The notes beneath the pieces were generated by a model. The model did no database searches. It was not told where the DNA came from and saw nothing but the letters and a program-made list of their open reading frames with translations. Below, piece after piece: positions 2,862 to 63,375 of a DNA stretch of 64,000 bases; positions within the stretch are counted from its first letter, which is position 1; every line of letters begins with the position of its first letter. The position numbers and the translations under genes were made by a program. This DNA comes from Candidatus Staskawiczbacteria bacterium RIFCSPHIGHO2_01_FULL_39_25 (GTDB lineage: Bacteria; Patescibacteriota; Minisyncoccia; Minisyncoccales; Staskawiczbacteraceae): assembly GCA_001820095.1 (NCBI GenBank), contig MHOO01000011.1, forward strand, positions 135,227-199,226. The letters are read 5' to 3'.

Positions 2862-2988
2862 TTAAAACTAGAATCTTGAATTTTGTATCTTGAAGCTTGA
2901 ATTGAATAGTGAATTTGGAATGTGAATTGACTATTCTATATTCCGTATTCTATTCTAGATTCGAGATTCCAGATTCTAGATTCATAAT
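2862..2988 (-). repeat. Family-2 quasi-palindromic intergenic element, empty copy (inverted relative to the 32.4/42.4 kb copies)
   Basis: Its reverse complement aligns with 42441..42560 and with the two arms flanking 32505..32894 (GAATCTAGAATC.., TTCAATTCAAGCT.., CAAGATTC). Confidence 0.6.
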
Positions 2989-5097: not shown

Positions 5098-5243
5098 TCT
5101 CTAAAAACTCTAAATCCTAAATCTTAAATCTGAAACAAATACTAAACACGAATTTTCAAAATTCTAAAAAAGTACCGTTTTAAACATTAGATTTTTGATT
5201 ATTAGGATTTGTTTAAGGTTTCGTGCTTCGTGCTTAGGATTTA
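5098..5243 (-). repeat. Family-3 quasi-palindromic intergenic element (inverted relative to the 34.6 kb copy)
   Basis: Reverse complement aligns with 34592..34727 (AATTAAATCC.AAGCACGAA ... AAACAAAT ... ATTTGTTTC ... GGATTTAG). Confidence 0.5.
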
Positions 5244-5253
5244 ATTAGATATT

Positions 5254-10813: not shown

Positions 10814-11626
10814 ATGGATGCCTATAAAAAAATCGCAAATGATGCCAGAAAGAAAGTTTTGGAAATGATCCACAATGGCCAAACAAGCCATATCGGGTCA
10901 AACTTTTCCGCAATTGATATTATGGCGGTTTTATTTTCCAAACTTAATCTAGACAAAGATTTAAAGCCCAATCGCGACCGGTTCGTGCTTTCAAAAGGAT
11001 GGGTGGCAGCGGCGCTGTATTATTTTTTGTCAGAAAAAGGCATTATCCCCAAAGAAGATCTGGAAGAATTTGGCAAAGAAGGTTCAAAGTATATTGGCTT
11101 GTCAGAGCCTGCAGTCAGGGGTGTAGAAGCGGCCGGCGGGGCGATGGGCCACGGGCTTCCTATTGCCTTAGGCATGGCCTTGGCGGCAAAACGTGGCGGA
11201 GAATCTTGGAAAACGTATGTATTAATGTCTGACGGAGAATTGGACTGCGGCACTACCTGGGAATGCGCTTTGCTGGCTGCCCACCAGAAATTAAATAATT
11301 TAACGGTGATTGTTGACAGCAATGGATTCCAAGCCATGGGGACCAAGCAAGAAGTGCTAGACGTGGAACCGTTACCTGAAAAGTGGCGGGCTTTTAATTG
11401 GGATGTTGTGGAAATTGACGGCCATAATTACCGAGAAATTAGCGATGCATTAGATCGTGCGGGCACGGGGGAAAAACCTCTTATGATTATTGCGAGAACT
11501 TTGAAGGGACGCGGAGTTTCTTTTTTTGAAGGAAAATTAGAGTGGCACTACAAGACGATAGACGCGGAGAATTATCAAAAAGCGTTAATAGAACTAAATA
11601 CTTTGAATTACGAAATGCCCAATTAA
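10814..11626 (+). CDS. Transketolase, N-terminal (TPP-binding) subunit
   Basis: 270 aa; GHIGSNFSAIDI, GAMGHGLP, SDGELDCG motifs of split transketolases. Confidence 0.9.
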   Translation: MDAYKKIANDARKKVLEMIHNGQTSHIGSNFSAIDIMAVLFSKLNLDKDLKPNRDRFVLSKGWVAAALYYFLSEKGIIPKEDLEEFGKEGSKYIGLSEPAVRGVEAAGGAMGHGLPIALGMALAAKRGGESWKTYVLMSDGELDCGTTWECALLAAHQKLNNLTVIVDSNGFQAMGTKQEVLDVEPLPEKWRAFNWDVVEIDGHNYREISDALDRAGTGEKPLMIIARTLKGRGVSFFEGKLEWHYKTIDAENYQKALIELNTLNYEMPN

Positions 11627-11667
11627 AAGCAAGTTTCAGGTTCGGGAAAGCATTTCGTAATTCAAAG
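11601..11667 (+). promoter_or_regulatory. 18-bp perfect inverted repeat spanning the transketolase-N stop codon, with a conserved 17-mer in its loop
   Basis: CTTTGAATTACGAAATGC (11601-11618) / GCATTTCGTAATTCAAAG (11650-11667); loop 17-mer AAAAGCAAGTTTCAGGT recurs at 43044-43060. Confidence 0.45.
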
Positions 11668-11676
11668 TAAATAGCA

Positions 11677-13598: not shown

Positions 13599-14360
13599 AT
13601 GGAAGAAAAAACACATACCATAGAGTTTTCAGAAAAAGTATTTAAATTGGGGCTTGCCATTATTGCTGTAACCGCGCTTTTTTTAATCGGCCAAATGATT
13701 TACCAATTTAAATCATTGCCGCAAAACGCTCCCCATGAAATAACTGTAAGCGGCGAGGGCAAGGCATTGGTAAAACCCGACATCGCAACCATCAGCTTTG
13801 GAGCCAATACCCAAGGCCTAAAGAGCCAAGAGGTGGTTAACCGCAATAACGATATTATGAATGCGGTCATTAAATCAATCAAAGAGTCGGGGGTAGAAGA
13901 TAAGGATATTAAAACCACGTTCTATAACTTAACTCCTATTTATGACTACACGCCGCGGGGAGGCAGGGAATTCAAAGGGTACTCTTTAGACCAACAAATA
14001 AGCGTTAAAATAAGGAATTTTGATAAAATTTCCGAAATTTTAGATAAAGCTGCTGCCAATGGGGCAAATACTATCGGAGATTTGCAGTTTACCGTAGATG
14101 ATATGGAAAAAATACGGGCAGAAGCAAGGACAGAAGCAATTAAAAACGCAAAAGAAAAAGCCATGTCATTAATAGGTCCGGCAGGCCTGACGATAGAGAG
14201 GGTCGTCAGCATTACCGAGGGGCATGGAATTCAGCCGCCGCAGCCTTTCTACGGCCAAGCAGAAGCTTTCTCTAAAGATGCTGCAAGCATTGCTCCTCAA
14301 ATCCAACCTGGCCAAATGGAGGTTGTCAGCAATGTTACATTAACTTACCGAGTCCGGTAA
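13599..14360 (+). CDS. SIMPL (DUF541) domain protein
   Basis: N-terminal TM anchor plus the SIMPL pattern (ITVSGEG...PDIA, IRAEARTEAIKNAKEKA). Confidence 0.85.
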   Translation: MEEKTHTIEFSEKVFKLGLAIIAVTALFLIGQMIYQFKSLPQNAPHEITVSGEGKALVKPDIATISFGANTQGLKSQEVVNRNNDIMNAVIKSIKESGVEDKDIKTTFYNLTPIYDYTPRGGREFKGYSLDQQISVKIRNFDKISEILDKAAANGANTIGDLQFTVDDMEKIRAEARTEAIKNAKEKAMSLIGPAGLTIERVVSITEGHGIQPPQPFYGQAEAFSKDAASIAPQIQPGQMEVVSNVTLTYRVR

Positions 14361-14376
14361 ATTTCAAATTCGTAGT

Positions 14377-14763: not shown

Positions 14764-14779
14764 AAAATTCGTGAGTTAG

Positions 14780-14845
14780 TGAGTTAGGCTAAGCCTAACT
14801 CCAGGCAATAGGCTTGTGAGTTAGGCTAAGCCTAACTCCAGGCAA
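14780..14845 (+). repeat. Two tandem copies (period 37) of a hairpin repeat TGAGTTAGGCTAAGCCTAACTCCAGGCAA
   Basis: Identical 29-mers at 14780-14808 and 14817-14845; a related hairpin GTGGAGTTAGGCTTAGCCTAGCTCCAC lies at 25502-25528. Confidence 0.6.
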
Positions 14846-16779: not shown

Positions 16780-17964
16780 ATGGCAAAAAAGAAAAAACCA
16801 AGAAAATTAAAAAAACCGAAGCCCTTAAAGAAGAAAAAAGTTTCCAGAAAACTTTCTAAGACAAGGAAGCGTAAACCGGCAAAAAGGGTTAAAAAGGAAA
16901 AAATTACCCAAGAGCAGATAGATGCCCTTTTACGCAAAGGTGAAGAGCGGGGTTTTTTGACGAACTCTGAAATACTGTATTTTTTCCCCAACATAGAAAG
17001 CAACGTGGACGAACTGGAAAGAATATACGATCTCTTAAAAGAGCGGGGGGTTGCGATACGGGAGGTAAGGGAATTCTTGGAAATAAAATCCAAGAAAGAA
17101 AAAAAAGCAAAGAAAGCGGTTTTAGGCAAAATTGACCCCATCCAAATGTACTTAAAAGAAATCGGCAGGTCGGGGTTTTTGTCGGCCAAGGAAGAAAAAG
17201 AGTTGGCCAAGCGCATTGAACATGGAGAAGAGGACGCAAAAAATAAATTGGCATTGGCAAACTTGAGGCTCGTGGTTTCTATTGCCAAAAAATACATCGG
17301 CAGGTCGCCAAACCTCACGTTATTGGACTTGATCCAAGAGGGAAACCTGGGGCTTTTTAAGGCCGTGAAAAAATTTGACTGGAGGAAGGGGTATAAATTT
17401 TCCACCTATGCAACCTGGTGGATCCGCCAGTCAATTACCCGCGCCTTAGCTGACCAGGCAAGAACCATCAGGATTCCCGTGCACATGATTGAAACTATTT
17501 CAAAGTACACTAAAATCAGGAGGAGCCTTTTGCAAGAACTGGGCCGGGAGCCTTTGGCAGAAGAAATTGCCGCTGAAATGGGGCTGGAAGTTGATAAAGT
17601 CCACCACATCAGGAAAATTGCCCAAAAAGCGGTTTCATTGGAGACTCCGATTGGAGAAGATAAAGACAAGCAAGACAGCGTATTGGCAGAATTCATTAAA
17701 GACGACAAGTCAATTGCGCCAAACACCGAGGCCTCCAGAAAACTGTTGAAAGAACGGTTAAAAGAAATTTCCAGCGAGCTTACCCAGCGGGAATTAAAAA
17801 TTTTGGGTATGCGGTTCGGTTTGGAAGACGGCGTTATGCATACCCTTGAAGAAACTGGTGAAGAATTCGGGGTTACCCGCGAAAGAATCAGGCAGATCCA
17901 GGCAAAAGCTTTAGAGAAACTGCGAAGGCATTCAGACCTGAAAAAAGTACGAGACTATTATTAA
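16780..17964 (+). CDS. rpoD: RNA polymerase primary sigma factor with a Lys-rich N-terminal extension
   Basis: Regions 2-4 ([29 protein letters not shown]); starts 3 nt after dnaG. Confidence 0.95.
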
Positions 17965-18100
17965 ATTTGAAATTTGAAATTTACAATTTGAAATCAATTT
18001 TAAATAACTAAATTTGAAATGATTAAAACCGACGTCGCCTTTTCAAATTAATATATTGTAGTATTGAATTCAAATTTCAAATTTCGAATTTCAAATTCAA
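17965..18100 (+). repeat. Family-1 (TTTGAAAT-type) quasi-palindromic intergenic element, copy 1
   Basis: Fills the rpoD-pyk gap; core GAAATGATTAAAACCGACGTCGCCTTTTCAAATT flanked by complementary TTTGAAAT/ATTTCAAA arms. Confidence 0.65.
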
Positions 18101-18106
18101 AACGCT

Positions 18107-19183
18107 ATGAATCCACGAATTATTGCAACGATAGGGCCTAAATCTGAAGAATATGACATCTTAAGCCAAATGGCTGCTGAAGGAATGAATATCATGCGGG
18201 TTAATTTTTCCCATGCCACAGAATCTCAATGGCATAAAATAAAAGATAATCTTGCAAGGATAAAAAAAGAAACCGGCGCCGATATAAAAATGATGGCAGA
18301 CCTCCAGGGCCCAAGGATACGCTTGGGAGTGTTGCAAAAAGATGTAGAAATTGTGAAGGGCGCTACGTATATATTTTTTTCAGGGAAAGCGAACGTTGCA
18401 AAAAATGAACTGCCTATAGATTACCCTGACCTCCATAAATTCATTAAACAGGGGCAACCGATGTATCTTTCAAACCGTTTGGTTGAGTTGCGGGTTGAAA
18501 AAGTATCGGGAAAGAAAATTTTTGCAAAAGCTGTTACGGGCGGAGTGGCCTCAAGCAGAAAAGGCATTAATGTTCCAGAGACCATTATTGCGGGCAGTGC
18601 CTTAACCAAGAAAGATATCAAAGACGCAAAATTTGTGGCAAAAAACGGCGCGGATTATGTGTGCCTTTCGTTTGTGCAAACCAGCAAAGATGTTGAGCAG
18701 CTAAGAAAAGCGCTGGCAGATGATGCTATAGATATTATTGCAAAAATAGAAAGGGCGTCGGCGTTAGACCACATTGACAGCATTATAAAAGCTTCCAATG
18801 GAATTATGATTGCCAGGGGGGATTTGGGGATTGAAATGCCCATAGAAGAGCTTACTATTATACAAAAAAACCTCATCCGCCATGCGCATCAATACAAAAG
18901 GCCTGCCATTGTGGCAACCCAGATGCTAGATTCCATGGCAAAAAATCCGTATCCTACGCGGGCAGAGGCCGCTGATGTAGCCAACGCCATTTTTGACGGG
19001 GCTGACGCCGTCATGCTTTCCGATGAAACGGCTTCCGGAAATTATCCGGTCATGGCGGTGTCTACCATGAAAAAAATTGCCAAGAAAGTAGATGAATACT
19101 TCAATAGCACTAACTATTTTGAGCAGGCCCATGGGGGTGTGGGACTTGAACAGAACCAGCTTGAGAAGCGAAAACAGAGATGA
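18107..19183 (+). CDS. pyk: Pyruvate kinase, short form lacking the C-terminal domain
   Basis: Barrel-domain motifs (MRVNFSHA, MIARGDLGIE, MLSDETASG); 358 aa; last ~17 codons lie in the 5' arm of the element at 19133..19399. Confidence 0.85.
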   Translation: MNPRIIATIGPKSEEYDILSQMAAEGMNIMRVNFSHATESQWHKIKDNLARIKKETGADIKMMADLQGPRIRLGVLQKDVEIVKGATYIFFSGKANVAKNELPIDYPDLHKFIKQGQPMYLSNRLVELRVEKVSGKKIFAKAVTGGVASSRKGINVPETIIAGSALTKKDIKDAKFVAKNGADYVCLSFVQTSKDVEQLRKALADDAIDIIAKIERASALDHIDSIIKASNGIMIARGDLGIEMPIEELTIIQKNLIRHAHQYKRPAIVATQMLDSMAKNPYPTRAEAADVANAIFDGADAVMLSDETASGNYPVMAVSTMKKIAKKVDEYFNSTNYFEQAHGGVGLEQNQLEKRKQR

Positions 19184-19399
19184 GGTCAAGGCGCGACGAG
19201 GAAACATAGCCTTGCGCTATGTTTCCGAAGTCGCAACGCAGACATCATCTCTGTTTTCGCTTCCCTTCGGGCTCTGTCACTTGCTTGTCTTCTTCGTATT
19301 CAGAATGAAACGATGCGCAAGGCATCGTTTCATTCCTCAATCCTTGAATACAAGCAATATACGAGAGCTCAATTGGTTCTGTTCGAGTCCCACACCCCT
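19133..19399. ncRNA. Candidate structured RNA or structured element, copy A (267 nt; homologous to 62892..63160)
   Basis: 25-32-bp closing helix and two long internal hairpin domains; motifs TCAAGGCGCGA, GCAACG, GCGCAAGGC (GCAAG pentaloop) and CCTTGAA at the same relative offsets as in copy C. Confidence 0.5.
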
Positions 19400-19443
19400 A
19401 GCATCAAGATTGATTTTAGAAACTTATAAAAGATAAATTTTGC

Positions 19444-19480
19444 AAAAAAAATTGGGATGTCGGACATCCCAATTTTTTTG
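19444..19480. terminator. Bidirectional intrinsic terminator
   Basis: A-run, AATTGGGATGT-CGG-ACATCCCAATT stem, T-run; lies between convergent units. Confidence 0.7.
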
Positions 19481-19497
19481 TTGCAACGTTGCAATAC

Positions 19498-25351: not shown

Positions 25352-25715
25352 AAAAACAAAACCCCGTACGTTATTTGCGAGCAACCATCCGGAAGCCCAC
25401 GTACGAGGATTTACTTGTTACGACTTTAGTGTAGTCTATTAGATATTCTTTGTCAATAGTTTAATATAAACAGGTTAAACCTGTTTTTTTTGTTTCTGCT
25501 CGTGGAGTTAGGCTTAGCCTAGCTCCACTGGGTGTTTGTAAAAGTGTGAGTAAGGTGTGGGTAAGCGTATTAATAACTGTGTTTATAAAAACGGTAAAAA
25601 GATTGTAAAAACAATTAACGCCCCCTTAAAACTGCTGTAAAGTTATCCACATACTCTACATATATTGACAAGTTTTTTTATAGTATAATGAAAGAATTTA
25701 TATTCAAATGAAATA

Positions 25716-25817: not shown

Positions 25818-28800
25818 GTGAAAATTAACGAAGAAAAAGCCGAAATATTTTTAGACCCTGAAGATTCTAAGAAAAAGCTGTGGGCGGCTTCAGCAGATTT
25901 AATTTCCCTGTCAGAGGCTGCCAAGTTTACGCCCTACAGCGCAGAGTACTTAAGCTATCTCGCCCGCAAAGGAAAAATTGAAGCGGTAAAACTTTCGCGC
26001 GATTGGATGACCACCAAAGAAATTGTGGTTGAGTATGTTAAAGAACAGGAAGATCGGCAAAAAAAATTATCTGAAAGATTCCAGCAAGCCGAACAGTTCC
26101 GCCACCACGCCCAAGCCGGTTTTATTGGCATGAAAATATTAGCGGTAGCCAGCGCGGCTATGATGACGGTTTCCAGCGTACTGTCTCCAACGGTTACCGA
26201 ATATAAAAATCTGGCAGAAAAAGTTTCTGAACTACCAACAAAAGTTTCTGAAATTAAAATGCCGCAGATGCCAGAGATTCCCGAAATTACCCCCGCTGGC
26301 GTAAGCCAATCAACAGTAAATTACCTTACCACCATTAGCAACGCCGCAAACAACCATGCTGAAAATTTGGCGCGATCAGCAGGCAATAATCTAGCGAACT
26401 TAAGCATCTCTGTAAATAACAAAGCTGACAACTTAGCCAGGTCAGCGGGCAACGGCCTTGCCAATTTAAACCAATCAGTAAATGACGGCCTCATTAATTT
26501 AACCAAGCCGTTAACAGCTACGTTGCAAAGTTACAACGTGGGCAACATCAGCGGACGTTACAAAGTTGAAATTCCCGCGTCCGGCACCGCTAAAAAAAAT
26601 CAACTGGCCGTAGTACCAGCAACGCCAACAGCTCCAGCCGTCAAAGATTCTGCTACCACTGCTGCCACGGCTCCCGTAGTAACTTCTAAAGCGCCAAGCG
26701 TTGATGATATTATTGCTCAAAAATTACAGCTCATGCTGGCCCAGGGCCTTCTCACCGGCCCCGCAGGGCCTATTGGCCCAACCGGTCCAGCCGGGCTTCA
26801 AGGCCCTCTGGGTCCGGCAGGCCCGCAAGGGCCGGCGGGGTCTGGCATTGTTAGCAATGGCGGCGGCAGAACGAGCGCCGTAGTTGGAACCACTTCTATT
26901 GTAACGTACATACCCGCCAATCCGCCGGTAAACAATGGAGGCTCATCAATAGCAGGTTTTACCACTCTATCAGCAGACACCTTCAACACCAAAGATGCTA
27001 CGCTTAGCGGTTCATTAGCGGTTACAGGTACTTCCACGCTGGCAAGCATAACCGCTTCAGGCGCTGTAAACCTTACGGGAACTACCACCATTGCCGCGCT
27101 TACCACGACCACCTTAAACCCGGGCTTTACGGCCGGGTCCATTGTATTCCAAGGGGCTTCTAACTTGGCTCAAGACAACGCTAACTTCTTCTGGGATGAT
27201 ACCAACAATCGGCTAGGAATTGGCACGGCTAGCCCAGGCGCATTGCTGGACGTTCGCGGCGCGGCCATTTTCAACGAAGATGGCGCTGACGCGGATTTCC
27301 GCGTTGAAGGAGATACGGATGCCAACCTTTTGTTTATAGACGCTTCCACTGATCGCGTTGGCATTGGCACGGCCACGCCTTCAGCCCTATTCAGCGTTGG
27401 TAGTGGCAGCCCCTTCCAGGTTGATTCTTCCGGCAACATTGCTTCTTCCGGAACCACCGGCGTTACACTTTCCGGGGTTGGCGCCGACCTCACGTTCACA
27501 GGTACCGGCAACCATGATGTTTCGGCTTCGTCTGGAACACTGCGGGTTGGAGCCTCAACCATCATAGGCAATGTCCAAGCCGTAGATGATACTATAGACA
27601 TTGGTACGGCAGGTGTCCGGTTTGATAAAATCTACGCCAATGAAGTCAATGCCTCCATATTGGTGGGCACCATTAGCGGCGGCAATGTTCAGGCAGAAAC
27701 GTTAAGCATTAATTCTGACAACGCCACCGCTGATACCGAGGATGCCTTTTTAGCTTTTGAGCGCGGCACGGTTACCCCCAACGCCCTCTTGCAGTGGGAT
27801 GCTACCAGCGACCTGTTTGACTTCAACTCCCGCCTAAGGCTGACTGGCACCATCCTTGGCGACCCATCAATTATCTTTAACTCTGCTACCGCCAGCGATA
27901 CTGATTATTGGATTTCCCTGCAGGAAGACGGCGCCGGAGACGATGATGACACCTTTCAAATTGGCAAGGGTACAATACCGGGGACCAGCTCTTTTGTCAC
28001 TATCAACAAAGACGGCAACGTCGGGATTGGCACCTCAACGCCGATGTCAGCAGCAGGATTTCGCAAGGGACTAGAAATTGCTGCAGAGCCGAATACGTTT
28101 ACCCCATCACTAGTACTTCGAAGCACTGCCTCCACAAGTAATAATGCACAAATCATGTTTACGGGCCCCTCAGGAAATAACTGGGCAATTGGCACCGACG
28201 TAGCAAGCGGTTCTGGATCACGGGACTTCCATTTTTATGATCTGAACTCCTTAACGCTGAAGATGGTTGTACAGAGTAGTACTGGAAACGTCGGGATCGC
28301 TGACTCCTCTCCCGACGACCTCCTGAACATCCACTCCGCCTCCGCCGCCGCAGGGATGGCGATCACCAGCCTCGGCACCGACACCGACCCGTATATCAAG
28401 TTCGAGCTTGCAGATGGCACTCCCACCTTCACCATGGGCGTGGACGACTCGGACAGCGACAAATTCAAGATCAGCACGACGGCGCTGGGGACGAGTGATC
28501 GGTTGGTGATTGATTCGAGTGGAAATGTGGGCATCGGAGACACCTCCCCCGACGACCTCTTAAACATCCACTCCGCCACTGCCGCCGCAGGATTAGCGAT
28601 CACGAGCCTCGGCACCGACACCGACCCGTATATCAAGTTTGAACTCGCGGACGGCACCCCCACCTTCACCATGGGCGTGGACGATAGCGATTCTGACATG
28701 TTCAAGATTAGCACCACCGCCTTAGGAACAAGCGACCGGTTGGTCATTGATTCGAGCGGGAATGTAGGCATTGGCGATACCTCACCCGACGACCTATTAA

Positions 28801-31800
28801 ACATCCACTCCGCAAGCGCAGCCGCAGGCTTGGCGATCACGAGCCTCGGCACCGACACCGACCCCTATATCAAATTCGAACTTGCGGATGGTACATCCAC
28901 TTTCATTATGGGGGTAGATGATTCAGATTCCGACAAGTTCAAAATCAGCACAACGGCGTTGGGGACGAGTGATAGGTTCGTGATTGATAGCAGTGGGAAT
29001 GTGGGCGTCGGTAACACCGACCCGTATGCCCAATTCCATCTGGGTGCTCGCTACGCTGTAACGCCGACCAACATTACCAGTGCCAAGGCTGCCATCACCA
29101 ACGGTGCTCTGTACATTGGCACGACGGCCCAAGGCTCAAACAACACCAACGTCGATCTGCTTGAGTTAGGACACATTAAGACGGGCGCTTTCGGCGGCGG
29201 TTCGGTCAACATCAACTTCCGGGGCTTCGACGCCGGCAACGGTACGAACAGAGGTGTGCTTGCGCAAATCAATGGCGGTCAGAAAAATGACGATTTGGTC
29301 GGTTCTGGGTTCCTTGCATTTGGCGTAGCTGCTGATGAAGCTACGACTCCTACCGAGGCGATGCGGATTGTCGAAACTGGATTGATCGGAATCCAAAATA
29401 CCGATCCTTACGCAAGGCTTCATGTCGGAGCCAAGTACCCTTTTACTCCCACCGGAGCCACGAGTGGGAAAGCGGCGATCACTGGAGGAAGTTTGTTCAT
29501 AGGTACGTCAGCTCAAGCGGACCACAACCTCAACATCGACCTTTTGGACTTGACCCAAACGCAGAATGGAACAGTCAATGGTGGATCGGTCAATATTAAC
29601 TTCCGGGTCTATGATACCGGTAACAATAGCAACAAAGGTGTCTTAGCGCAGGTCGTTGGTGGGCGCAAAGATGGCATCTCAGCCGCTGGTTCGGGTTTCC
29701 TAGCATTCAAGACAGCGGCAGCTGCCGCAACAACATCAACCGAGAGGATGCGAATCGATGAAAACGGAAACGTCGGGATTGGTGACACTTCTCCCGATGA
29801 CCTTCTAAATATCTCCTCCGCTGCTGCGGAAGCCGGCATTGCGATCACCTCCCTTGGCACCGACACCGACCCGTATATCAAGTTTGAACTCGCGGACGGC
29901 ACCCCCACCTTCACCATGGGCGTGGACGATAGCGATTCTGACATGTTCAAGATTAGCACCACCGCCTTAGGAACAAGCGACCGGTTGGTCATTGATTCGA
30001 GCGGGAATGTAGGCATTGGGACGGCAAGCCCAACGGCATCCTTACACATTAAAGCAGGTACAGCCACCGCCAACACTGCTCCGCTTAAATTTAATTCAGG
30101 GACACTGCTTACCACTGCAGAAGCGGGAGCCGTAGAATTCTTAACCGACGCTTATTACGGAACCATCACCACGGGAGCCGCAAGAAAAACATTCGCATTT
30201 TTAGAAAGTCCAATCTTCACCGGCACCGTTACCATCCCAACTCCATTTACCCTTGGGGCTACTTCGGTAACTACTACCGGCACACAATTGAATTATCTCA
30301 ATGCGGCAACTGGAACCACGGGAACCGCCAGCACTAATCTGGTATTTTCAACTTCGCCAACTATTACAACTCCTATATTTACCACAAATATTACAACTCC
30401 ACTGGTGATTGGAGGCACGTCAACCACCGCTAACCTCACCTTGCAGACCACGACAGGCGTCGGCACGACAGGTGCGGATATGCACTTCCTTGTTGGGAAC
30501 GCTGGGGCGACGGAGGCGATGACGATTTTAAATAACGGAAACGTCGGGATTGGCGATACAGATCCTGGTTCTCTCCTCCAGGTGGCAGGAAGAATTATTG
30601 GTGGTGCGAACACAGCGCCATCATCAAATAATACTACGACTCCATTGTACTTATTCACGAGTGCTAACGGAGGCATTCGTTTGCATCCTTCTGCTGCAAC
30701 AAATAGCACTACTATTATAGACGTAAGCGATGCATCTACTCGATATGCCCAAATTCAATACGATGGCACTAATAGCATATTGAATATTTCAAGCCAACAA
30801 TCAACAACAGGACAAATTAAATTATCAACTGGTTCTGGAACCGAAGCAGTAAGGATTGATGCTTCTCAAAGAGTTGGCATCGGCACCACCGCCCCACAAT
30901 CATTGCTCGATGTTCAAGGACCAACAGGCACCGGAGCAGCAACTGCAGGTATCCTTACGTTAGCCACCAAAGAGCTTACTATTGTTGATGATGACCAATT
31001 AGGAAGAATTAATTTTAACGCCCCTCTTGAATCTGACGGCTCTGACGCTATCTTGGCGGGCGCAGCTATTTGGGCGGAAGCGGAAGCAACTTTTAGCTCC
31101 ACCGTCAACAACACAGCTTTGGTATTTGGAACCGCAACCACATCAGCGGCAGTTGAAAGAATGAGGATAGATGCGAGCGGGAATGTGGGGATCGGCGACA
31201 CTACGCCAAGTTATAAATTAGATGTTACTGGCGATGCTCACTTTACTGCTAATATGACGCTTGATGCTGGTCTTACGGTTGCTAGTACCGCCAGTATTGG
31301 AAGCACGGTGACTCCGTCAAATTCAACGTTATTTGTAAATGGAACACTGGCAATAGGATCAGACGCCCTAAATAACCGGTTTAGCACTACCACCAGCGGT
31401 ACCGGCTCCACCCAGATGTTTATTGGAAATTCTACCATTGATGTAACTGCCCCTTCTGACGTTATTACCAAGGAAAATATTGTTTCTACCCAGTATGGGC
31501 TCAATGACTTAATGAAGCTTTCTGTAAAAGAATTTAATTATAAAAAAGAGTATGTAGATGAAGGCGAAATGCAAAAGCTGCACACGGGAATGATTGCTCA
31601 AGAAGTAGAGCAAATTTTCCCCGAAGCTACTATATATAGGTCAGACGGATTAAAGTCTATTGATTACTCAAAAATGGTGCCGTTGCTTATTAAGTCTATC
31701 CAAGACTTGCGGCTGGAGTTTACTGCTGCTTTGGGAGATTACCTTGCAGCAAACCCAAATGCGCTTACGGGTAGTTCGGGGTCATTGTCTGAAATGAAGA

Positions 31801-32429
31801 GCCTGACATTGAGCGAGGATTTGACAGTAAAAGGAAAAGCGACGTTTGAGGGCGATGTTGACACCCAGGGAACGCTGACCTTAAGCAAGCAGCAGGGAGG
31901 GCTGGCTACTATTGGGGCTGGGGCAAAAGAGGTAAGCATTAACTTTAGCAAGCCGTTTGCCGCAAAACCAATTGTTACGGTAACGCCGGAGGGGGAGTCG
32001 GTGGTGTTCAGCACGTCTGACGTAAGCGCCACGAGCTTTACCATTAAGCTGGCGGTTCCGGCAACGTCTAACATCACCTTTGCCTGGATAGCGCTGGCGG
32101 TACAAGATGCAACTTCTATTAGTACGGGAGGTACGGGCAGTGTTGGCGGAATTTCTGGGTCTTCGGGTGGTTCTGGCTCTTCTACAACAGAGCCTGCGGA
32201 CTCTCCGGCGGCTGAAACTGATTCAACAGCAACAGAGACGCCTGCTGGTTCAGAAGCAGAAGAAACCTCTACTTCTGAAACTGAAACTGCGCCTTCTTCA
32301 GAAACTCCGGTTGCCGAAACTCCAGCCTCTGAACCTGCTTCTGAACCAGAACCAGCTCCAGAACCAGAGCCTGCTCCGGCTCCTGCACCAGAACCGACTC
32401 CCGAGCCAGCTCCAGAGCCAACACCGTAA
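25818..32429 (+). CDS. Giant (2203-aa) membrane-anchored fibre protein: HTH-like N-terminus, TM helix, collagen-like run, tail-fibre-type repeats, peptidase-S74-like chaperone module, lectin-like module, Pro/Glu/Ala-rich tail
   Basis: Uninterrupted 6.6-kb ORF (GTG start); 10 G-X-Y triplets at 26757-26846; 79-aa repeats; SDVITKENIV...MVPLLIKSIQDL module; PEPAPEP tail. Confidence 0.85.
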   Translation: MKINEEKAEIFLDPEDSKKKLWAASADLISLSEAAKFTPYSAEYLSYLARKGKIEAVKLSRDWMTTKEIVVEYVKEQEDRQKKLSERFQQAEQFRHHAQAGFIGMKILAVASAAMMTVSSVLSPTVTEYKNLAEKVSELPTKVSEIKMPQMPEIPEITPAGVSQSTVNYLTTISNAANNHAENLARSAGNNLANLSISVNNKADNLARSAGNGLANLNQSVNDGLINLTKPLTATLQSYNVGNISGRYKVEIPASGTAKKNQLAVVPATPTAPAVKDSATTAATAPVVTSKAPSVDDIIAQKLQLMLAQGLLTGPAGPIGPTGPAGLQGPLGPAGPQGPAGSGIVSNGGGRTSAVVGTTSIVTYIPANPPVNNGGSSIAGFTTLSADTFNTKDATLSGSLAVTGTSTLASITASGAVNLTGTTTIAALTTTTLNPGFTAGSIVFQGASNLAQDNANFFWDDTNNRLGIGTASPGALLDVRGAAIFNEDGADADFRVEGDTDANLLFIDASTDRVGIGTATPSALFSVGSGSPFQVDSSGNIASSGTTGVTLSGVGADLTFTGTGNHDVSASSGTLRVGASTIIGNVQAVDDTIDIGTAGVRFDKIYANEVNASILVGTISGGNVQAETLSINSDNATADTEDAFLAFERGTVTPNALLQWDATSDLFDFNSRLRLTGTILGDPSIIFNSATASDTDYWISLQEDGAGDDDDTFQIGKGTIPGTSSFVTINKDGNVGIGTSTPMSAAGFRKGLEIAAEPNTFTPSLVLRSTASTSNNAQIMFTGPSGNNWAIGTDVASGSGSRDFHFYDLNSLTLKMVVQSSTGNVGIADSSPDDLLNIHSASAAAGMAITSLGTDTDPYIKFELADGTPTFTMGVDDSDSDKFKISTTALGTSDRLVIDSSGNVGIGDTSPDDLLNIHSATAAAGLAITSLGTDTDPYIKFELADGTPTFTMGVDDSDSDMFKISTTALGTSDRLVIDSSGNVGIGDTSPDDLLNIHSASAAAGLAITSLGTDTDPYIKFELADGTSTFIMGVDDSDSDKFKISTTALGTSDRFVIDSSGNVGVGNTDPYAQFHLGARYAVTPTNITSAKAAITNGALYIGTTAQGSNNTNVDLLELGHIKTGAFGGGSVNINFRGFDAGNGTNRGVLAQINGGQKNDDLVGSGFLAFGVAADEATTPTEAMRIVETGLIGIQNTDPYARLHVGAKYPFTPTGATSGKAAITGGSLFIGTSAQADHNLNIDLLDLTQTQNGTVNGGSVNINFRVYDTGNNSNKGVLAQVVGGRKDGISAAGSGFLAFKTAAAAATTSTERMRIDENGNVGIGDTSPDDLLNISSAAAEAGIAITSLGTDTDPYIKFELADGTPTFTMGVDDSDSDMFKISTTALGTSDRLVIDSSGNVGIGTASPTASLHIKAGTATANTAPLKFNSGTLLTTAEAGAVEFLTDAYYGTITTGAARKTFAFLESPIFTGTVTIPTPFTLGATSVTTTGTQLNYLNAATGTTGTASTNLVFSTSPTITTPIFTTNITTPLVIGGTSTTANLTLQTTTGVGTTGADMHFLVGNAGATEAMTILNNGNVGIGDTDPGSLLQVAGRIIGGANTAPSSNNTTTPLYLFTSANGGIRLHPSAATNSTTIIDVSDASTRYAQIQYDGTNSILNISSQQSTTGQIKLSTGSGTEAVRIDASQRVGIGTTAPQSLLDVQGPTGTGAATAGILTLATKELTIVDDDQLGRINFNAPLESDGSDAILAGAAIWAEAEATFSSTVNNTALVFGTATTSAAVERMRIDASGNVGIGDTTPSYKLDVTGDAHFTANMTLDAGLTVASTASIGSTVTPSNSTLFVNGTLAIGSDALNNRFSTTTSGTGSTQMFIGNSTIDVTAPSDVITKENIVSTQYGLNDLMKLSVKEFNYKKEYVDEGEMQKLHTGMIAQEVEQIFPEATIYRSDGLKSIDYSKMVPLLIKSIQDLRLEFTAALGDYLAANPNALTGSSGSLSEMKSLTLSEDLTVKGKATFEGDVDTQGTLTLSKQQGGLATIGAGAKEVSINFSKPFAAKPIVTVTPEGESVVFSTSDVSATSFTIKLAVPATSNITFAWIALAVQDATSISTGGTGSVGGISGSSGGSGSSTTEPADSPAAETDSTATETPAGSEAEETSTSETETAPSSETPVAETPASEPASEPEPAPEPEPAPAPAPEPTPEPAPEPTP

Positions 32430-32448
32430 TAAATTTGAAATTTACAAT

Positions 32449-32948
32449 GAATCTTAGTCGAATCTAGAATCTTGTATCTTGTAGCTTGAATAGAATACGG
32501 AATTATGAATAACGATGAAAATAAAATTAAAAAATTCACTGACCTTCATGCTTGGCAGGAGGGGCATAAATTAGTCTTGATGGTATATAAAAATACTGAA
32601 AAATTTCCTGATAAAGAGCGGTTTGGAATTACAGATCAAATGAGAAGGGCGGTAGTTTCACTAACTTCTAATATAGCAGAAGGATTTTCAAGAAGATCGT
32701 CAAAAGAAAAGAACAGATTTTACTGCATGGCCCAAGCATCCTTAGTAGAACTGCAAAACCAACTTATTATATCCCGCGATATTGGTTACTTACCAAATGA
32801 TGATTTTAAAATTATTGCAGATCAGTCAATTGTAGCCAATAAACTTTTAAACGGGCTTTTAAAAGCCACAAAAGATAAAAAATTTGAGTTTTAAATTCTA
32901 GATTCCACATTCAATTCAAGCTTCTAAATACAAGATTCAAGATTCTTA
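32449..32948 (+). mobile_element. Family-2 quasi-palindromic element carrying a four-helix-bundle gene between its arms
   Basis: Left arm 32449-32504 and right arm 32895-32948 match the contiguous empty copies at 42441..42560 and 2862..2988 (inverted). Confidence 0.5.
32505..32894 (+). CDS. Four-helix-bundle protein (23S rRNA intervening-sequence protein family)
   Basis: 129 aa; FTDLHAWQEGHKL, ITDQMRRAVVSLTSNIAEGF and ASLVELQNQL motifs typical of the family. Confidence 0.85.
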   Translation: MNNDENKIKKFTDLHAWQEGHKLVLMVYKNTEKFPDKERFGITDQMRRAVVSLTSNIAEGFSRRSSKEKNRFYCMAQASLVELQNQLIISRDIGYLPNDDFKIIADQSIVANKLLNGLLKATKDKKFEF

Positions 32949-33498: not shown

Positions 33499-33560
33499 GG
33501 CAACGTCCGACGTTGCCGCATTTGGTGAAAAATGAGGACGTCCGACGTCCTCATTTTTTT
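33499..33560 (+). terminator. Two tandem terminator hairpins with a shared ACGTCCGACGT apex
   Basis: GGCAACGTCCGACGTTGCC, then AAAAATGAGGACGTCCGACGTCCTCATTTTTTT. Confidence 0.7.
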
Positions 33561-33651
33561 GTAAGTAACACATTAAAGTGGGACGTGTGACTCCCAATTT
33601 TTTTTGTAAGTAATAGTAGGTGTAAGCGTCATATATCGTAGAACGAAACCT

Positions 33652-33794
33652 AATTTGAAATTTTCAATTTGAAATTTGAAATCAATTTGAAATTATTGAA
33701 TTTGAAATGATTTAAACCCGGCGTCGTGTTTTCAAATTTAAATATTCAATCATTGAAATATTGAATTCAAATTTCAAATTTCAAATTGAAAATT
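33652..33794 (+). repeat. Family-1 quasi-palindromic intergenic element, copy 2
   Basis: Core GAAATGATTTAAACCCGGCGTCGTGTTTTCAAATT with TTTGAAAT/ATTTCAAA arms; ends about 10 nt before ATG 33804. Confidence 0.65.
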
Positions 33795-34556: not shown

Positions 34557-34591
34557 TACTAATACTTGAATTTGAAATTGTAAATTTCAAA

Positions 34592-34727
34592 TTAAATCCG
34601 AAGCACGAAATCCGAAATCCGAAACAAATTCAAAATACCAAAATTAAAAATCAAAAAACACGTTTAGAATTTCCCGTCTTTAGAATTTAGATATTGTTTC
34701 GAATTTCGAGATTCGGATTTAGGGTTT
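34592..34727 (+). repeat. Family-3 quasi-palindromic intergenic element
   Basis: AAATCCGAAGCACGAAATCCGAAATCCGAAACAAAT ... ATTGTTTCGAATTTCGAGATTCGGATTT; homologous to 5098..5243 (inverted). Confidence 0.5.
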
Positions 34728-34756
34728 AAAACAGAGGTTGGGCCTCTGTTTTTTAC
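34728..34756 (+). terminator. Intrinsic terminator
   Basis: AAAACAGAGG-TTGG-GCCTCTGTTTT followed by TT. Confidence 0.65.
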
Positions 34757-34803: not shown

Positions 34804-34812
34804 TGATATAAT
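34804..34812 (+). promoter_or_regulatory. Extended -10 promoter element (TGaTATAAT) 8 nt upstream of the giant-gene ATG
   Basis: TGATATAAT at 34804-34812; ATG at 34821; implies a leaderless or near-leaderless mRNA. Confidence 0.4.
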
Positions 34813-34820
34813 TGATAAAC

Positions 34821-42117: not shown

Positions 42118-42381
42118 ATGTACTATACATATGTAATGCGCAGTTCGAAAGATAATAAATTATACATTGGTTATACGAAAAATTTAAAGTTGAGATTTGA
42201 GCAACATAGCAAAGGTTTGGTAGACTCAACAAAGTACAGAAAACCATTTGTCGTAATTTATTATGAGGCATGTCAATATCAGAAGGATGCTTTAAGAAGG
42301 GAAAAATTTCTTAAAACATACCGTGGTACCCAGTTTTTACATAAGAGACTCAAATCTCATTTCACGGGGGCAAGCACATAA
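42118..42381 (+). CDS. Stand-alone GIY-YIG nuclease-domain protein (87 aa)
   Basis: YYTYVMRS...KLYIGYTKNLKLRFEQH...R.EK.LK pattern (GIY-YIG core). Confidence 0.85.
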   Translation: MYYTYVMRSSKDNKLYIGYTKNLKLRFEQHSKGLVDSTKYRKPFVVIYYEACQYQKDALRREKFLKTYRGTQFLHKRLKSHFTGAST

Positions 42382-42440: not shown

Positions 42441-42560
42441 TAGAATCTAGAATCTCGTATCTTGAATCTGGAATAGAATAAAGGAATGCTGAATTCAAAA
42501 AACTTCATATTCCAAATTCAAAATTCAATTCAAGCTACCAGATACTAAATTCAAGATTCA
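42441..42560 (+). repeat. Family-2 quasi-palindromic intergenic element, empty copy
   Basis: AGAATCTAGAATCTCGTATCTTGAATCTGGAATAGAATAAAGGAAT ... TTCCAAATTCAAAATTCAATTCAAGCT...CAAGATTC. Confidence 0.6.
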
Positions 42561-43004: not shown

Positions 43005-43012
43005 GCAAAGAG

Positions 43013-43197
43013 CATTAGACGTGAATCTTGAAACCCCTTATTAAAAAGCAAGTTTCAGGTCTTTTTCCTAAATTCCAGCTGCAAATGTGCAATAATTCTA
43101 AAACGTAGCTTGCTACGTTTTAGAATTCTATCACATTTTCGCTCTGGAATTTAGAAAAAATCCCAAGAAAGGGTTTCAAGGTTCACGTCATTAGATG
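43013..43197 (+). ncRNA. Candidate structured element B: 20-bp closing helix, conserved 17-mer, ~100-nt nested hairpin
   Basis: GACGTGAATCTTGAAACCC pairs with GGGTTTCAAGGTTCACGTC (one U-G wobble, + strand only); AAAAGCAAGTTTCAGGT at 43044-43060. Confidence 0.4.
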
Positions 43198-43205
43198 TTA
43201 AAGCG

Positions 43206-44555: not shown

Positions 44556-44591
44556 ATTAATTTTCAATTTTCAATTTTCAATCAATTTTCA

Positions 44592-46520: not shown

Positions 46521-46668
46521 CTTGAATTTGAAATTCGAAATTTGAAATTTGAATTCAATATTTTAATATTTAAATGTTCCAATTTGAAAACACGACGTCC
46601 GGTTTAAATCATTTCAAATTTGATAATTTCAAATTGACTTCAAATTGTAAATTGTAAATTTCAAATTT
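46521..46668 (-). repeat. Family-1 quasi-palindromic intergenic element, copy 3 (inverted)
   Basis: Reverse complement contains GAAATGATTTAAACCGGACGTCGTGTTTTCAAATT with the same arms. Confidence 0.65.
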
Positions 46669-54378: not shown

Positions 54379-55218
54379 ATGATTCAAGACAAATATAGCG
54401 CATTATGGGTGTCGCATTCCTCAATTGGAGACTTTATTAAGTGTCCGAGGGCGTACTACTTGCATAATATTTACCGGACGAAGGATAATCGGAAGATAAA
54501 TACCGTAAGTCCTGCTTTGTCGCTAGGGATTGCGGTGCATGATACGCTAGAAAATTTGGCGAATTTTAAGACAGAAATTCGGTTTAATGTGCCTTTGGAA
54601 GTGGCGTTTGAAGAAAATTGGAAAAAGGTTTCAGGGAAGCTGGGTGGGTTTAAAAGCGAGACAGAAGAAGCGGAAGCCAAAGAGCGCGCCCGGAATATGG
54701 TGCTGCGGGTGCAAAAAAATCCGGGGCCTTTAGCCAAATTAACGGTTAAGTTACGGCCGCATGCCAATGACATGCCCCCTAATTTTTATTTATCGGAGGC
54801 TGACAACATTATTTTAAACGGAAAGATTGACTGGCTGGAATATGTGCCAGAAAATGACAGTATACGGGTAATTGATTTTAAAACAGGGAAAAATGAGGAA
54901 AGCCCGGATTCGCTACAGCTGCCTATTTATGCCTTATTGCTGCATAATTTGCAAAAACGGAAAGTGTCGGGAGCGGCGTATTGGTATTTAGATAAGGACG
55001 ACAAACCAAAAGATGTTGCGTTGCCAGAGATTGACCCGGCCAAAGAGCGGGTGCTTGCTATTGCTAAGAAAATAAAAGAAGCAAAAGAACGGGGCGTATT
55101 TGAATGTTCGCGCAAAACATACGGTTGCTTTGCATGTACGCCTTTTGAAAAAATTATAAAAGGCGAAGCCGAATTTGTGGGAATAGGAGGATATAATCAA
55201 GAACTTTATCTAATTTGA
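54379..55218 (+). CDS. Cas4/RecB-like PD-(D/E)xK nuclease with a Cys cluster
   Basis: N-terminal FIKCPRAYYL, IDFKTGK, C-terminal CSRKTYGCFAC. Confidence 0.8.
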   Translation: MIQDKYSALWVSHSSIGDFIKCPRAYYLHNIYRTKDNRKINTVSPALSLGIAVHDTLENLANFKTEIRFNVPLEVAFEENWKKVSGKLGGFKSETEEAEAKERARNMVLRVQKNPGPLAKLTVKLRPHANDMPPNFYLSEADNIILNGKIDWLEYVPENDSIRVIDFKTGKNEESPDSLQLPIYALLLHNLQKRKVSGAAYWYLDKDDKPKDVALPEIDPAKERVLAIAKKIKEAKERGVFECSRKTYGCFACTPFEKIIKGEAEFVGIGGYNQELYLI

Positions 55219-55344
55219 AATTTGAAATCAATTTGAAAATATCAAATTTGAAATGATTCAAACCCGACGTCACGTTTTCAAATTAAAATATTGTAACATT
55301 GAAATATTGAATTCAAATTGTAAATTTCAAATTTCGAATTTAAA
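55212..55344 (+). repeat. Family-1 quasi-palindromic intergenic element, copy 4
   Basis: Core GAAATGATTCAAACCCGACGTCACGTTTTCAAATT; overlaps stop codon 55216-18 and ends 3 nt before ATG 55348. Confidence 0.65.
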
Positions 55345-60321: not shown

Positions 60322-60365
60322 GCGAATTTATTAGAAATTAGGAATTATAAATTAGAAATTAAGCC

Positions 60366-62891: not shown

Positions 62892-63160
62892 AGAGCCACG
62901 GAACACATTATAACTAGTTTTAGCGGAGCGAATTAAGCCAAGATTCAAGGCGCGAGGAAGAGATACGTACCCTCTGCGGTACGTTCTCGACGAGCAACGA
63001 AGAAGCTTGGCTTAATTCGCCCGCCCAAGGGGAAGCCAAAAAATGAATAATTTCTGCGTTATGCCTCCGAGGCGTAGCGCAAGGCTACGCCTCGTTCGGC
63101 AAGCCTTGAAATTATTTCATTTTTTGGGTTCTAAAACTAGTTATAATGTGTTCCGTGACT
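62892..63160. ncRNA. Candidate structured RNA or structured element, copy C (269 nt; homologous to 19133..19399)
   Basis: 31-bp closing helix (one mismatch), 13-bp and 19-bp internal helices; TCAAGGCGCGA 62944, GCAACG 62993, GCGCAAGGC 63076, CCTTGAA 63103. Confidence 0.5.
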
Positions 63161-63375
63161 CCAGGTTCGTAAAGAACAGTCTCACTTAATGTGGGAAGGT
63201 CGTACAAATTTCTAATTTGTATGACAGGAAAAATATAGCTCATTCAAGAGCAAAAGAGCCGCTTAAAGCGGCTCTTTTGCTCTAAACTCAATACAGAGTT
63301 TAACACCCTTTATGATAATTTGATTAAATTTTGTAAGTAATAACCAAGTCGTCCGTCATATAGTAAGAAAAATAT

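Follow-up and report, generated by a model that had tools for sequence, protein, structure and literature searches.

Bacteria of the candidate phyla radiation (CPR) have small genomes, which are considered to contain little mobile DNA. In the 64,000-nt stretch analysed here (contig MHOO01000011.1 of the uncultured groundwater CPR bacterium Candidatus Staskawiczbacteria bacterium RIFCSPHIGHO2_01_FULL_39_25, positions 135,227 to 199,226; "the window" below), one palindromic repeat, which we call Family 1, is found four times in the short spaces between genes, and the copy at the head of this report separates rpoD from pyk. What kind of element is it, how would it have come to lie there, and what would it do to the transcripts of its neighbours?

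Copies and anatomy of Family 1

The four copies that the initial annotation had reported, one of them inverted, are real. They measure 129-143 nt, with a pairwise identity of 80-88% and a mean column identity of 82%, and a family HMM recovers each of them with an E value of 1e-28 to 1e-35. Copy 1 (17964..18097, + strand, 134 nt) lies between rpoD, whose stop codon (17962-17964) it overlaps by 1 nt, and pyk, whose ATG (18107) stands 9 nt downstream. Copy 2 (33652..33794, + strand, 143 nt) is located 9 nt upstream of the ATG (33804) of a DUF4382 gene and 176 nt past the previous stop. Copy 3 (46525..46667, - strand, 143 nt) is the one inverted relative to its flanking genes; it begins 5 nt past the stop of a 343-aa ORF and ends 5 nt before the ATG (46673) of a DUF2779 gene. 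Copy 4 (55212..55340, + strand, 129 nt) provides the upstream gene, for a PD-(D/E)XK nuclease, with its TGA stop (55216-55218); 7 nt lie between the element and the ATG (55348) of an SDR gene. The common core of the family, TTTGAAATGATTNAAACC, is present exactly in all four copies and has no other exact match in the window. In dinucleotide shuffles about 1.1 matches to it are found even with three mismatches allowed, and none of 100 shuffles reaches five.

The arms of the palindrome had been described as TTTGAAAT-type units. They are indeed made of repeated units, but the units are tandem heptamers, AATTTGA on one side and TCAAATT, with the variants GTAAATT and TCGAATT, on the other arm. This 7-nt periodicity is seen as a match fraction of 0.51 at lag 7, compared with 0.33 +/- 0.013 in shuffles, and as additional maxima at lags 14 and 21. 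Not all copies have the same number of heptamers: copy 4 is without two left units and one copy from another organism (L008, see below) has one extra. Each window copy forms a near-perfect palindrome with the centre (C)GACGTC(G) and is predicted to fold into a single hairpin of about 50 bp, with energies of -28.6 to -35.6 kcal/mol and z scores of -2.75 to -6.5 against shuffles. The G+C content is 20%, and CGTC is found solely at the apex. The ends are sharp and common to all nine copies known from the window and elsewhere, AATTTGAAAT ... ATTTCAAATT or a one-base variant. Terminal inverted repeats are therefore present, but the palindromy spans the whole element. At the centre (ATGATT...GTTTTCAAATT), an ATG in sense orientation marks the start in eight of the nine copies. 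Family 1 is non-coding, with a sole internal ORF of 2-10 codons that is not conserved.

Several partial copies accompany the full ones. An interior-less copy, consisting of the termini only (AATTTGAAATT GTAAATTTCAAATT; 34569..34593, no strand assigned), forms a mini-palindrome that adjoins another heptamer palindrome. A fragment of the left terminus (AATTTGAAATTTACAAT; 32432..32448, + strand) is found just past the stop of a 2203-aa ORF and adjoins the family 2 cassette described below. A solo right terminus (AAATTTCAAATT; 14359..14370, + strand) overlaps a TAA stop 6 nt before the next ATG and is possibly a deletion scar or a target-like site. A right-end fragment is also found outside the window, at 1592-1622 of locus L001.

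Dispersal beyond the window

The initial annotation had made its view of the repeat depend on further copies in the rest of the genome. This condition could be applied only in part, through core scans, which did find copies in other organisms. Nine full copies are known, the four in the window and one each in loci L001, L008, L010, L011 and L012. Because the scans used the strict 21-base core, these counts are lower bounds. Among 185,579 species-representative genomes the core has one match, in the Danish MAG MFD04540.bin.3.21 (L001). In the JGI metagenomes it was found on five contigs. Four of them carry true copies (L008, L010, L011 and L012), all from sample Ga0209542; on the fifth, L009, the core matches by chance and there is no copy. 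The core pattern has no match in viral contigs.

No flanking DNA is common to the window and any of the five foreign copies. The neighbours of the L001 copy are genes for an amino-acid transporter and a Na/Ca exchanger. In L008, dnaA lies 144 nt downstream of the element. The order in L010 is rpmF, element, nusB and rnc, so that the gene of RNase III itself is located about 500 nt downstream of the copy. The L011 copy adjoins tsf and the L012 copy adjoins pilM. Since the same 140 nt, about 85% identical, are found at unrelated places in at least three organisms, Family 1 is, as judged by sequence comparison, a dispersed, mobile or once-mobile, yet rare element.

Insertion sites relative to genes

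The copies had been said to occupy entire intergenic gaps and to start at or near the upstream stop codon. Both statements hold for copies 1, 3 and 4, with a 1-nt overlap with the TAA stop in copy 1, a distance of 5 nt in copy 3 and the TGA inside the element in copy 4, as the initial annotation had it. Neither holds for copy 2: its upstream ORF reaches only to 33475, no ORF of at least 20 aa ends closer than 176 nt upstream, and two terminator-like hairpins (33536-33568 and 33579-33613) precede the element. The short distance to the next start codon is confirmed for the whole set, being 9, 9, 5 and 7 nt for copies 1 to 4. With the foreign copies included, the right end stands 5-9 nt ahead of an ATG in 8/9 copies, and the upstream ORF ends inside the element or at most 5 nt away in 7/9. 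The element itself supplies the TGA in copy 4 and L012, while the stop is formed across the junction, as T+AA or TA+A, in copy 1, L001, L010 and L011. The orientation relative to the neighbouring genes is alike in eight of nine copies (two-sided binomial about 0.04). Copy 2 and the L008 copy lie outside operon spacers.

The window is densely coded. In our gene map, which is a greedy, non-overlapping ORF-based map and not a curated annotation, 59 of 64 ORFs are on the + strand and the spacers are mostly 2-40 nt long. The apparent filling of whole gaps is thus explained by insertion into a compact genome with very short native spacers. Moreover, tandem AATTTGA units offer a TGA stop in each reading frame over a span of 21 nt, so that a protein would still end at once if the element were inserted into the last codons of its gene.

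The junctions were searched for traces of the insertion process. No direct repeat flanks any of the nine copies, and only the terminal AATT is repeated. As AATT is self-complementary, a 4-bp duplication is indistinguishable here from the inverted repeat. There is no TA pair at the flanks, which read T...C in most copies, and no conserved tetranucleotide stands ahead of the left end. Copies 2 and 4 at first seemed alike in their left flanks, but outside the element only 13 of 21 bases agree, and the likeness was dropped. The comparison of syntenic loci proposed in the initial annotation could be carried only part of the way. All strains in the databases keep copies 1, 2 and 4 unchanged, and the nearest other relatives are without synteny, so that neither an empty site nor a presence/absence polymorphism was found. 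In particular, pyk homologues of 66-72% identity no longer adjoin rpoD. When the SDR and DUF4382 proteins were looked up, every strain retrieved had the identical elements, and the genes that flank the foreign copies have no orthologues in any of the retrieved loci.

Expression signals and RNA-level tests

It had been argued that either the promoter, terminator and ribosome-loading signals of the downstream genes lie within the element or the neighbours are co-transcribed through the hairpin. The first branch finds little in the copies. A promoter scan gave only weak 9/12 matches, which arise from TTGAAA units, and no terminator-like site (a G+C-rich stem followed by a T run) was found in the elements. 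Elsewhere in the window the same scans do detect good terminators and a promoter with a perfect TTGACA-17-TATAAT match. A Shine-Dalgarno-like motif precedes just 7 of 61 window genes, so genes without one, pyk and the others behind Family 1 copies included, are the rule in this organism and the concern about ribosome loading falls away. Given the lack of consensus promoters and terminators and the rarity of Shine-Dalgarno motifs, read-through is the simplest reading for copies 1, 3 and 4, and the second branch, co-transcription of the element with its neighbours, is the likelier one on these sequence scans. Copy 2 is a separate case, since it lies behind terminators and transcription of the DUF4382 gene must begin within the element or immediately ahead of it; no start site was identified there.

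We also looked for marks of selection on the RNA. Sense and antisense folding are equal across 17 ORF-less elements, and the arms of all seven PF05635 cassettes described below pair slightly better as antisense. The sense strand thus has no folding advantage, and no mark of selection on the transcript is apparent; the palindromy may be kept at the DNA level or through the copying mode of the element. Covariation within Family 1 is too sparse to be informative: two of 36 pairs are compensated, and in three other copies these two are disrupted by non-pairing bases or gaps. In a search of Rfam 15 only a tRNA reaches threshold in the window, with chance-level hairpin matches around copies 1 and 2. 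The window holds no rRNA gene, and all Family 1 copies lie between protein-coding genes.

Sister families in the window

Family 1 is not the only heptamer-armed palindrome in this stretch. Sister family 2, with the units GAATCTT / AAGATTC, is present in an ORF-bearing form (32460..32945, + strand), in which 51-nt inverted heptamer arms (80% complementary) surround an ORF of 129 aa (32505-32894). [quoted passage not shown] Two further copies of family 2 are ORF-less palindromes on the + strand, one upstream of a LemA gene (2868..2986) and one at 42443..42559. Both keep the ATG region and the last bases of the ORF; in the loop of the 42443 copy about the last 12 nt of the full-form ORF are retained, which suggests an internal deletion.

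Two other palindromes of this architecture were identified, likewise on the + strand. One, at 34592..34729, has arms of AAATCCG / CGGATTT and a AAACACGTTT-type apex. The other, at 5100..5250 upstream of bacA, has arms of AAATCCT / AGGATTT. Heptamer-armed palindromes make up about 1.3 kb of the 64-kb window.

PF05635 cassettes in other genomes

The ORF at 32505-32894 has 2,057 homologues at E <= 1e-10, which form a smooth identity series and are often on short contigs. Inverted heptamer arms were found around 7/7 PF05635 genes examined in CPR loci. When the duplexes between upstream and downstream DNA of 122 genes were ranked, those of the seven were among the strongest, at -58 to -15 kcal/mol against -16.2 +/- 8.1 kcal/mol for the controls; a few non-PF05635 genes score high too. 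The arms and the ORFs change together. ORFs of 78-91% identity share the common family 2 arms, a relative of 65% identity has GAATATA units, and ORFs of about 20% identity are flanked by unrelated heptamers. In three of the seven CPR cassettes a same-strand gene follows at close range, and there 6-9 nt separate the end of the right arm from the ATG of that gene. A type IV secretion-like operon on one Staskawiczbacteria contig has a PF05635 gene in each of three consecutive spacers.

The same arrangement extends to other phyla. A tblastn search against plasmids found homologues in 30 records, mainly from Nostoc, Calothrix and other cyanobacteria, and also from Riemerella and Azospirillum. We examined the plasmid-borne homologues of 14 of these 30 records for arms. 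Tandem arrays of short units lie on at least one side in 12/14, and the arms are complementary (z <= -2.4) in 9/14. Examples are (GTAGGGA)n...(TCCCTAC)n, with a duplex of -81 kcal/mol, GGGTGTA/TACACCC and AAGGTTC/GAACCTT. On the L078 plasmid the gene stands between direct, not inverted, arrays, (AGCTAAA)10 and (AGCCAAA)10. Many of the plasmid-borne homologues lie between same-strand genes, for instance between cas10 and cmr3 or between cas6 and cas4. One of the 14, on Azospirillum lipoferum AZO_p2, is an ORF-bearing insertion at the helix-45 region of a genuine 23S rRNA (Rfam LSU, 404.8 bits), and the stem arms of this intervening sequence (IVS) are themselves heptamer-periodic (CAGAGGA CGGATGA CAGAGGA CGGAGGA...).

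Searches for an ORF-bearing Family 1 cassette were negative. None turned up in some 100 kb of DNA from related CPR loci, and two arm-pattern scans of viral contigs returned low-complexity matches only, with no full Family 1 copy and no PF05635 gene. In the literature that we searched, an incomplete collection, we found no description of heptamer-armed four-helix-bundle cassettes in operon spacers and no link of such cassettes to the heptamer repeats of cyanobacteria.

Origin of Family 1

Family 1 is probably a non-coding, dispersed stem-loop that belongs to a superfamily with inverted tandem-heptamer arms, as a gene-less, IVS-like form that would be transcribed within operon RNA. We hold this reading with moderate confidence. 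It is suggested by what Family 1 has in common with the PF05635 cassettes, namely heptamer arms, arm length, stem-loop form, niche and a distance of 5-9 nt to the next ATG, together with the ATG at the centre of 8/9 copies. We infer that Family 1 may descend from a PF05635 cassette or may have been moved by the same machinery. As no ORF-bearing Family 1 copy was found, the tie is drawn from architecture, niche and the precedent of family 2.

Alternatively, Family 1 could be a classical MITE, an internally deleted IS mobilised in trans by a DDE transposase with specificity for its terminal inverted repeats. The size of 129-143 nt, the missing ORF, the sharp inverted termini, the dispersed copies and the intergenic sites would all suit such an element, and ERIC, Correia and Nezha are elements of this kind of 104-170 bp (PMC3184786). 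However, outside the element there is no target-site duplication, only the self-complementary AATT being repeated, and the 64-kb window and the retrieved loci contained neither a transposase gene nor an IS with such ends. Furthermore, the whole element is palindromic and not its ends alone, the arms are tandem heptamers of varying number, and in this genome the relatives with an ORF encode a four-helix-bundle protein instead of a transposase. We consider a MITE origin unlikely. The lack of a target duplication would suit a hairpin of the REP/REPIN kind, transferred as single-stranded DNA by a Y1 (RAYT / IS200-type) transposase, since hairpin repeats without target duplication are typical of the Y1 mechanism. 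A related CPR locus (L057, 4256-5225) has a Y1_Tnp gene with repeated G+C-rich hairpins on its flanks, and the CGTC at the Family 1 apex is the tag of one REP superfamily (PMC3733652). Yet REPs are 20-40 nt long, with GTAG or CGTC at one end (PMC3733652), and G+C-rich (PMC3184786), whereas Family 1 is 80% A+T, 129-143 nt long and has its CGTC at the apex. No conserved tetranucleotide precedes its left end, no Y1 gene lies in the window or adjoins any copy, and the L057 repeats differ from Family 1. All this makes a Y1-driven origin very unlikely.

Could the element instead be regulatory DNA or RNA native to each locus, such as a promoter, terminator, attenuator or iteron-like protein-binding array, and not a selfish repeat? 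Its position 5-9 nt ahead of start codons is strikingly constant, 8/9 copies have a common orientation, one copy lies upstream of dnaA, and copy 2 follows terminators, so that its downstream gene needs a nearby promoter. Against this, the same 140-nt sequence, about 85% identical, stands between functionally unrelated genes in different organisms; it has neither a promoter nor a terminator consensus and no Rfam match; one copy is inverted, and most window genes do without the element. A host-regulatory nature is therefore highly improbable. The order of events could also be the reverse of the one we prefer: gene-less heptamer palindromes would be primary, or landing pads, the four-helix-bundle gene would be a later cargo at the apex, and Family 1 would never have had an ORF. 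Several ORF-less families do have an apex of the AAAC-CG..CG-GTTT type that is absent from ORF-bearing cassettes, and the L078 gene stands between direct heptamer arrays as if inserted into one array. The ORF-less family 2 copies, however, retain the ATG region and the last bases of the ORF, pointing to deletion, and arms and ORFs diverge together. We regard this reversed order as the least probable of the explanations considered.

On the preferred reading, in which Family 1 is a gene-less IVS-like form, copies would land in the few bases between the stop codon of one gene and the start codon of the next on the same strand. An insertion at the very end of a gene would still terminate it, either through a TGA, available in all frames, or through T+AA giving TAA. 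Without a promoter or terminator of its own, the element would become part of the operon RNA as a stem of about 50 A-U-rich bp. By analogy with rRNA IVSs, RNase III would cut this stem and split the operon transcript.

A more far-reaching, joint reading is that Family 1 and its sister families are gene-less forms of one cross-phylum mobile class, in which inverted tandem-heptamer arrays enclose a TIGR02436 gene for an Avd-like four-helix-bundle protein. Its members would live in the spacers of ordinary operons in CPR, cyanobacteria, Bacteroidota and Proteobacteria, and the class would be the source of 23S IVSs and perhaps of STRR arrays. Its arms would grow and shrink by units, and the Avd-like protein would act in mobility or arm maintenance, possibly via an RNA intermediate. 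We offer this reading as a tentative one, which as a whole is possible but rather doubtful.

The wider pattern of heptamer arms and PF05635 genes is more interesting than Family 1 itself. With heptamer-armed palindromes inside core operons (rpoD-pyk, rpmF-nusB-rnc and tsf), transcripts would carry double-stranded stems of about 50 bp just before start codons. The origin, mobility and function of rRNA IVSs and their conserved ORF have been open for about 30 years (PMC4990558). Should elements of this kind live in the operon spacers of several phyla, with and without the ORF, many natural variants would be available for testing its movement and the role of the protein. The same material would also be a lead on why cyanobacteria have tandem heptamer arrays.

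Comparison with known systems

The initial annotation had likened Family 1 to ERIC and Correia elements (CREE) of Enterobacteria and Neisseria. Those are imperfect intergenic palindromes of about 104-157 bp, which are co-transcribed with their neighbours and can alter mRNA stability, and they have terminal inverted repeats with a flanking TA or target duplication (PMC3184786). The likeness stands for size, for the transcribable intergenic palindromes and for the way of life. It does not make them the closest relatives. From the published descriptions of ERIC and Correia elements, Family 1 is set apart by the lack of a TA or other flanking duplication, by its tandem-heptamer arms and by its CPR host, and it is not known to be related to them in sequence; no matching IS was found, and the PF05635 cassettes are nearer. 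With REP/REPIN sequences Family 1 shares repeated extragenic hairpins without target duplication, but it is long and A+T-rich, with no RAYT nearby.

Tandem 7-nt units in intergenic DNA are common to Family 1 and the cyanobacterial STRR. Elhai et al. reportedly described in 2008 small hairpin elements nested inside heptamer arrays, and such nesting is also seen in four Family 1 copies. Nezha, a MITE of 130-170 bp with a very stable predicted fold, is similar in size; it has direct repeats and ends in common with ISNpu3 (PMC3184786). Family 1 differs from STRR and Nezha in its unit sequences and in its host.

IVSs of 23S rRNA are known from Leptospira, Coxiella, Brucella and Salmonella. They have complementary borders, which form a stem that is a substrate of RNase III, and this enzyme excises them from the transcript. 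They may encode the PF05635 ("S23p") protein, forms without an ORF occur as well, and such elements are viewed as selfish and as having spread horizontally (PMC4990558). PF05635 ORFs occur, too, in insertions in CPR rRNA genes (PMC11270868). Family 1 resembles these IVSs in the long stem formed by complementary termini and in the short loop, and the arms of the Azospirillum IVS are likewise heptamer-periodic. In contrast to them, it lies between protein-coding genes and not in a helix of 23S or 16S rRNA, and it has no ORF, the ORF being found in sister family 2. In kind, Family 1 is an IVS/MITE-like stem-loop repeat, and its gene-less copies would stand to the ORF-bearing cassette as a MITE stands to its IS, or as a short ORF-less IVS stands to an ORF-bearing one.

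Mini-hairpins nested in the Family 1 arms

The heptamer arms of four foreign Family 1 copies, on contigs of the JGI metagenome sample Ga0209542, are found to hold nested small G+C-rich mini-hairpins of 17-30 nt (L010, 2311-2340; L012, 999-1027; L011, 2232-2250; L008, 2916-2938). The copies in L010 and L012 have in common a double-hairpin insertion at the identical position, though their loci differ, and the stems of the two insertions show a compensated change (CTGCC..GGCAG vs CTGTC..GACAG). The nesting, the shared insertion position and the compensated stem change together suggest a second, tiny mobile element with the heptamer arrays as its target.

Other palindromes and a strain-level breakpoint

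A comparison of the strain-level contig L003 (ERZ4903125 k141_4640776) with the window shows 99.95% identity up to window position 19401 (L003 position 4295). This position is the edge of a 270-nt palindrome, beyond which L003 runs into other genes. Since the identity stops at the palindrome edge and different genes follow, the comparison points to a rearrangement at the palindromic element.

The ~270-nt palindromes form a distinct, G+C-richer family with arms of 25-31 nt that are 96-97% complementary. Copies are observed at window 62893-63161 and 19134-19398, one of them overlapping the 3' end of pyk, and a related copy is held by the Ga0209542 contig L012 (3654-3923). A third family of intergenic palindromes, 100-200 nt long with the apex ACGTAGC..GCTACGT and without heptamer periodicity, is common to the window (43005-43205, also 11594-11674) and metagenome contigs (L008, 2092-2210; L012, 5030-5206, 9133-9302 and 10340-10516).

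Small hairpins, solo arrays and start-site context

A small repeated terminator-like hairpin of the type GGACGTCCGACGTCC, followed by a T run, occurs several times in the window (33499-33517, 33536-33568, 33581-33613 and 19455-19487), and two such hairpins stand in tandem directly upstream of Family 1 copy 2. The 30-nt hairpin-forming unit GTGAGTTAGGCTAAGCCTAACTCCAGGCAA is present in two perfect copies 37 nt apart (14779-14845) and in a third, diverged copy 10.7 kb away (25503-25532). Solo heptamer arrays with no obvious partner arm are found at 44555-44591, where four AATTTTC units end in the ATG of the next ORF, and at 60322-60365, where ATTAGAA-type units resemble the right arm of one cassette in the related CPR locus L017. 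Across the whole window, a Shine-Dalgarno-like motif precedes only 7 of the 61 predicted genes, and most start codons come after A/T-rich spacers a few bases long.

Internal repeats and a C-terminal repeat region rich in Pro/Glu are common to two giant ORFs, of 2203 aa (25818-32429) and 2425 aa (34812-42089). A member of family 2, the sister family with heptamer arms, comes after each of them, and after the 2425-aa ORF there is also a stand-alone GIY-YIG nuclease ORF of 87 aa (42118-42381).

Cassettes, an rRNA intervening sequence and a Y1_Tnp gene outside the window

In another Staskawiczbacteria genome, each of three successive spacers of a PrgI-like/TraC-like/VirB4-like operon is taken up by a PF05635 cassette that has heptamer arms of its own (L017 3587-6129, same in L018-L021). 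Plasmid four-helix-bundle genes flanked by tandem heptamer arrays sit between same-strand genes (L072-L085; plasmids of Nostoc, Calothrix, Picosynechococcus, Pseudanabaena, Riemerella and others). Several are hosted by CRISPR-Cas operons, at cas10-cmr3, at cas6-cas4 and upstream of cas4; on a Pseudanabaena plasmid the two arrays, (AGCTAAA)10 and (AGCCAAA)10, are direct, not inverted.

Heptamer-periodic stem arms are also found in a bona fide helix-45 intervening sequence with a PF05635-like ORF, in a 23S rRNA gene of Azospirillum lipoferum 4B plasmid AZO_p2 (L082 254-722); the AZO_p2 record carries no annotation at this place. Downstream of a Y1_Tnp (RAYT/IS200-like) gene on a related CPR contig lies an array of repeated, G+C-rich hairpins with units GGGCTTCTCCGTGAAGG (L057 4256-5225), an arrangement that looks like a REP/RAYT system.
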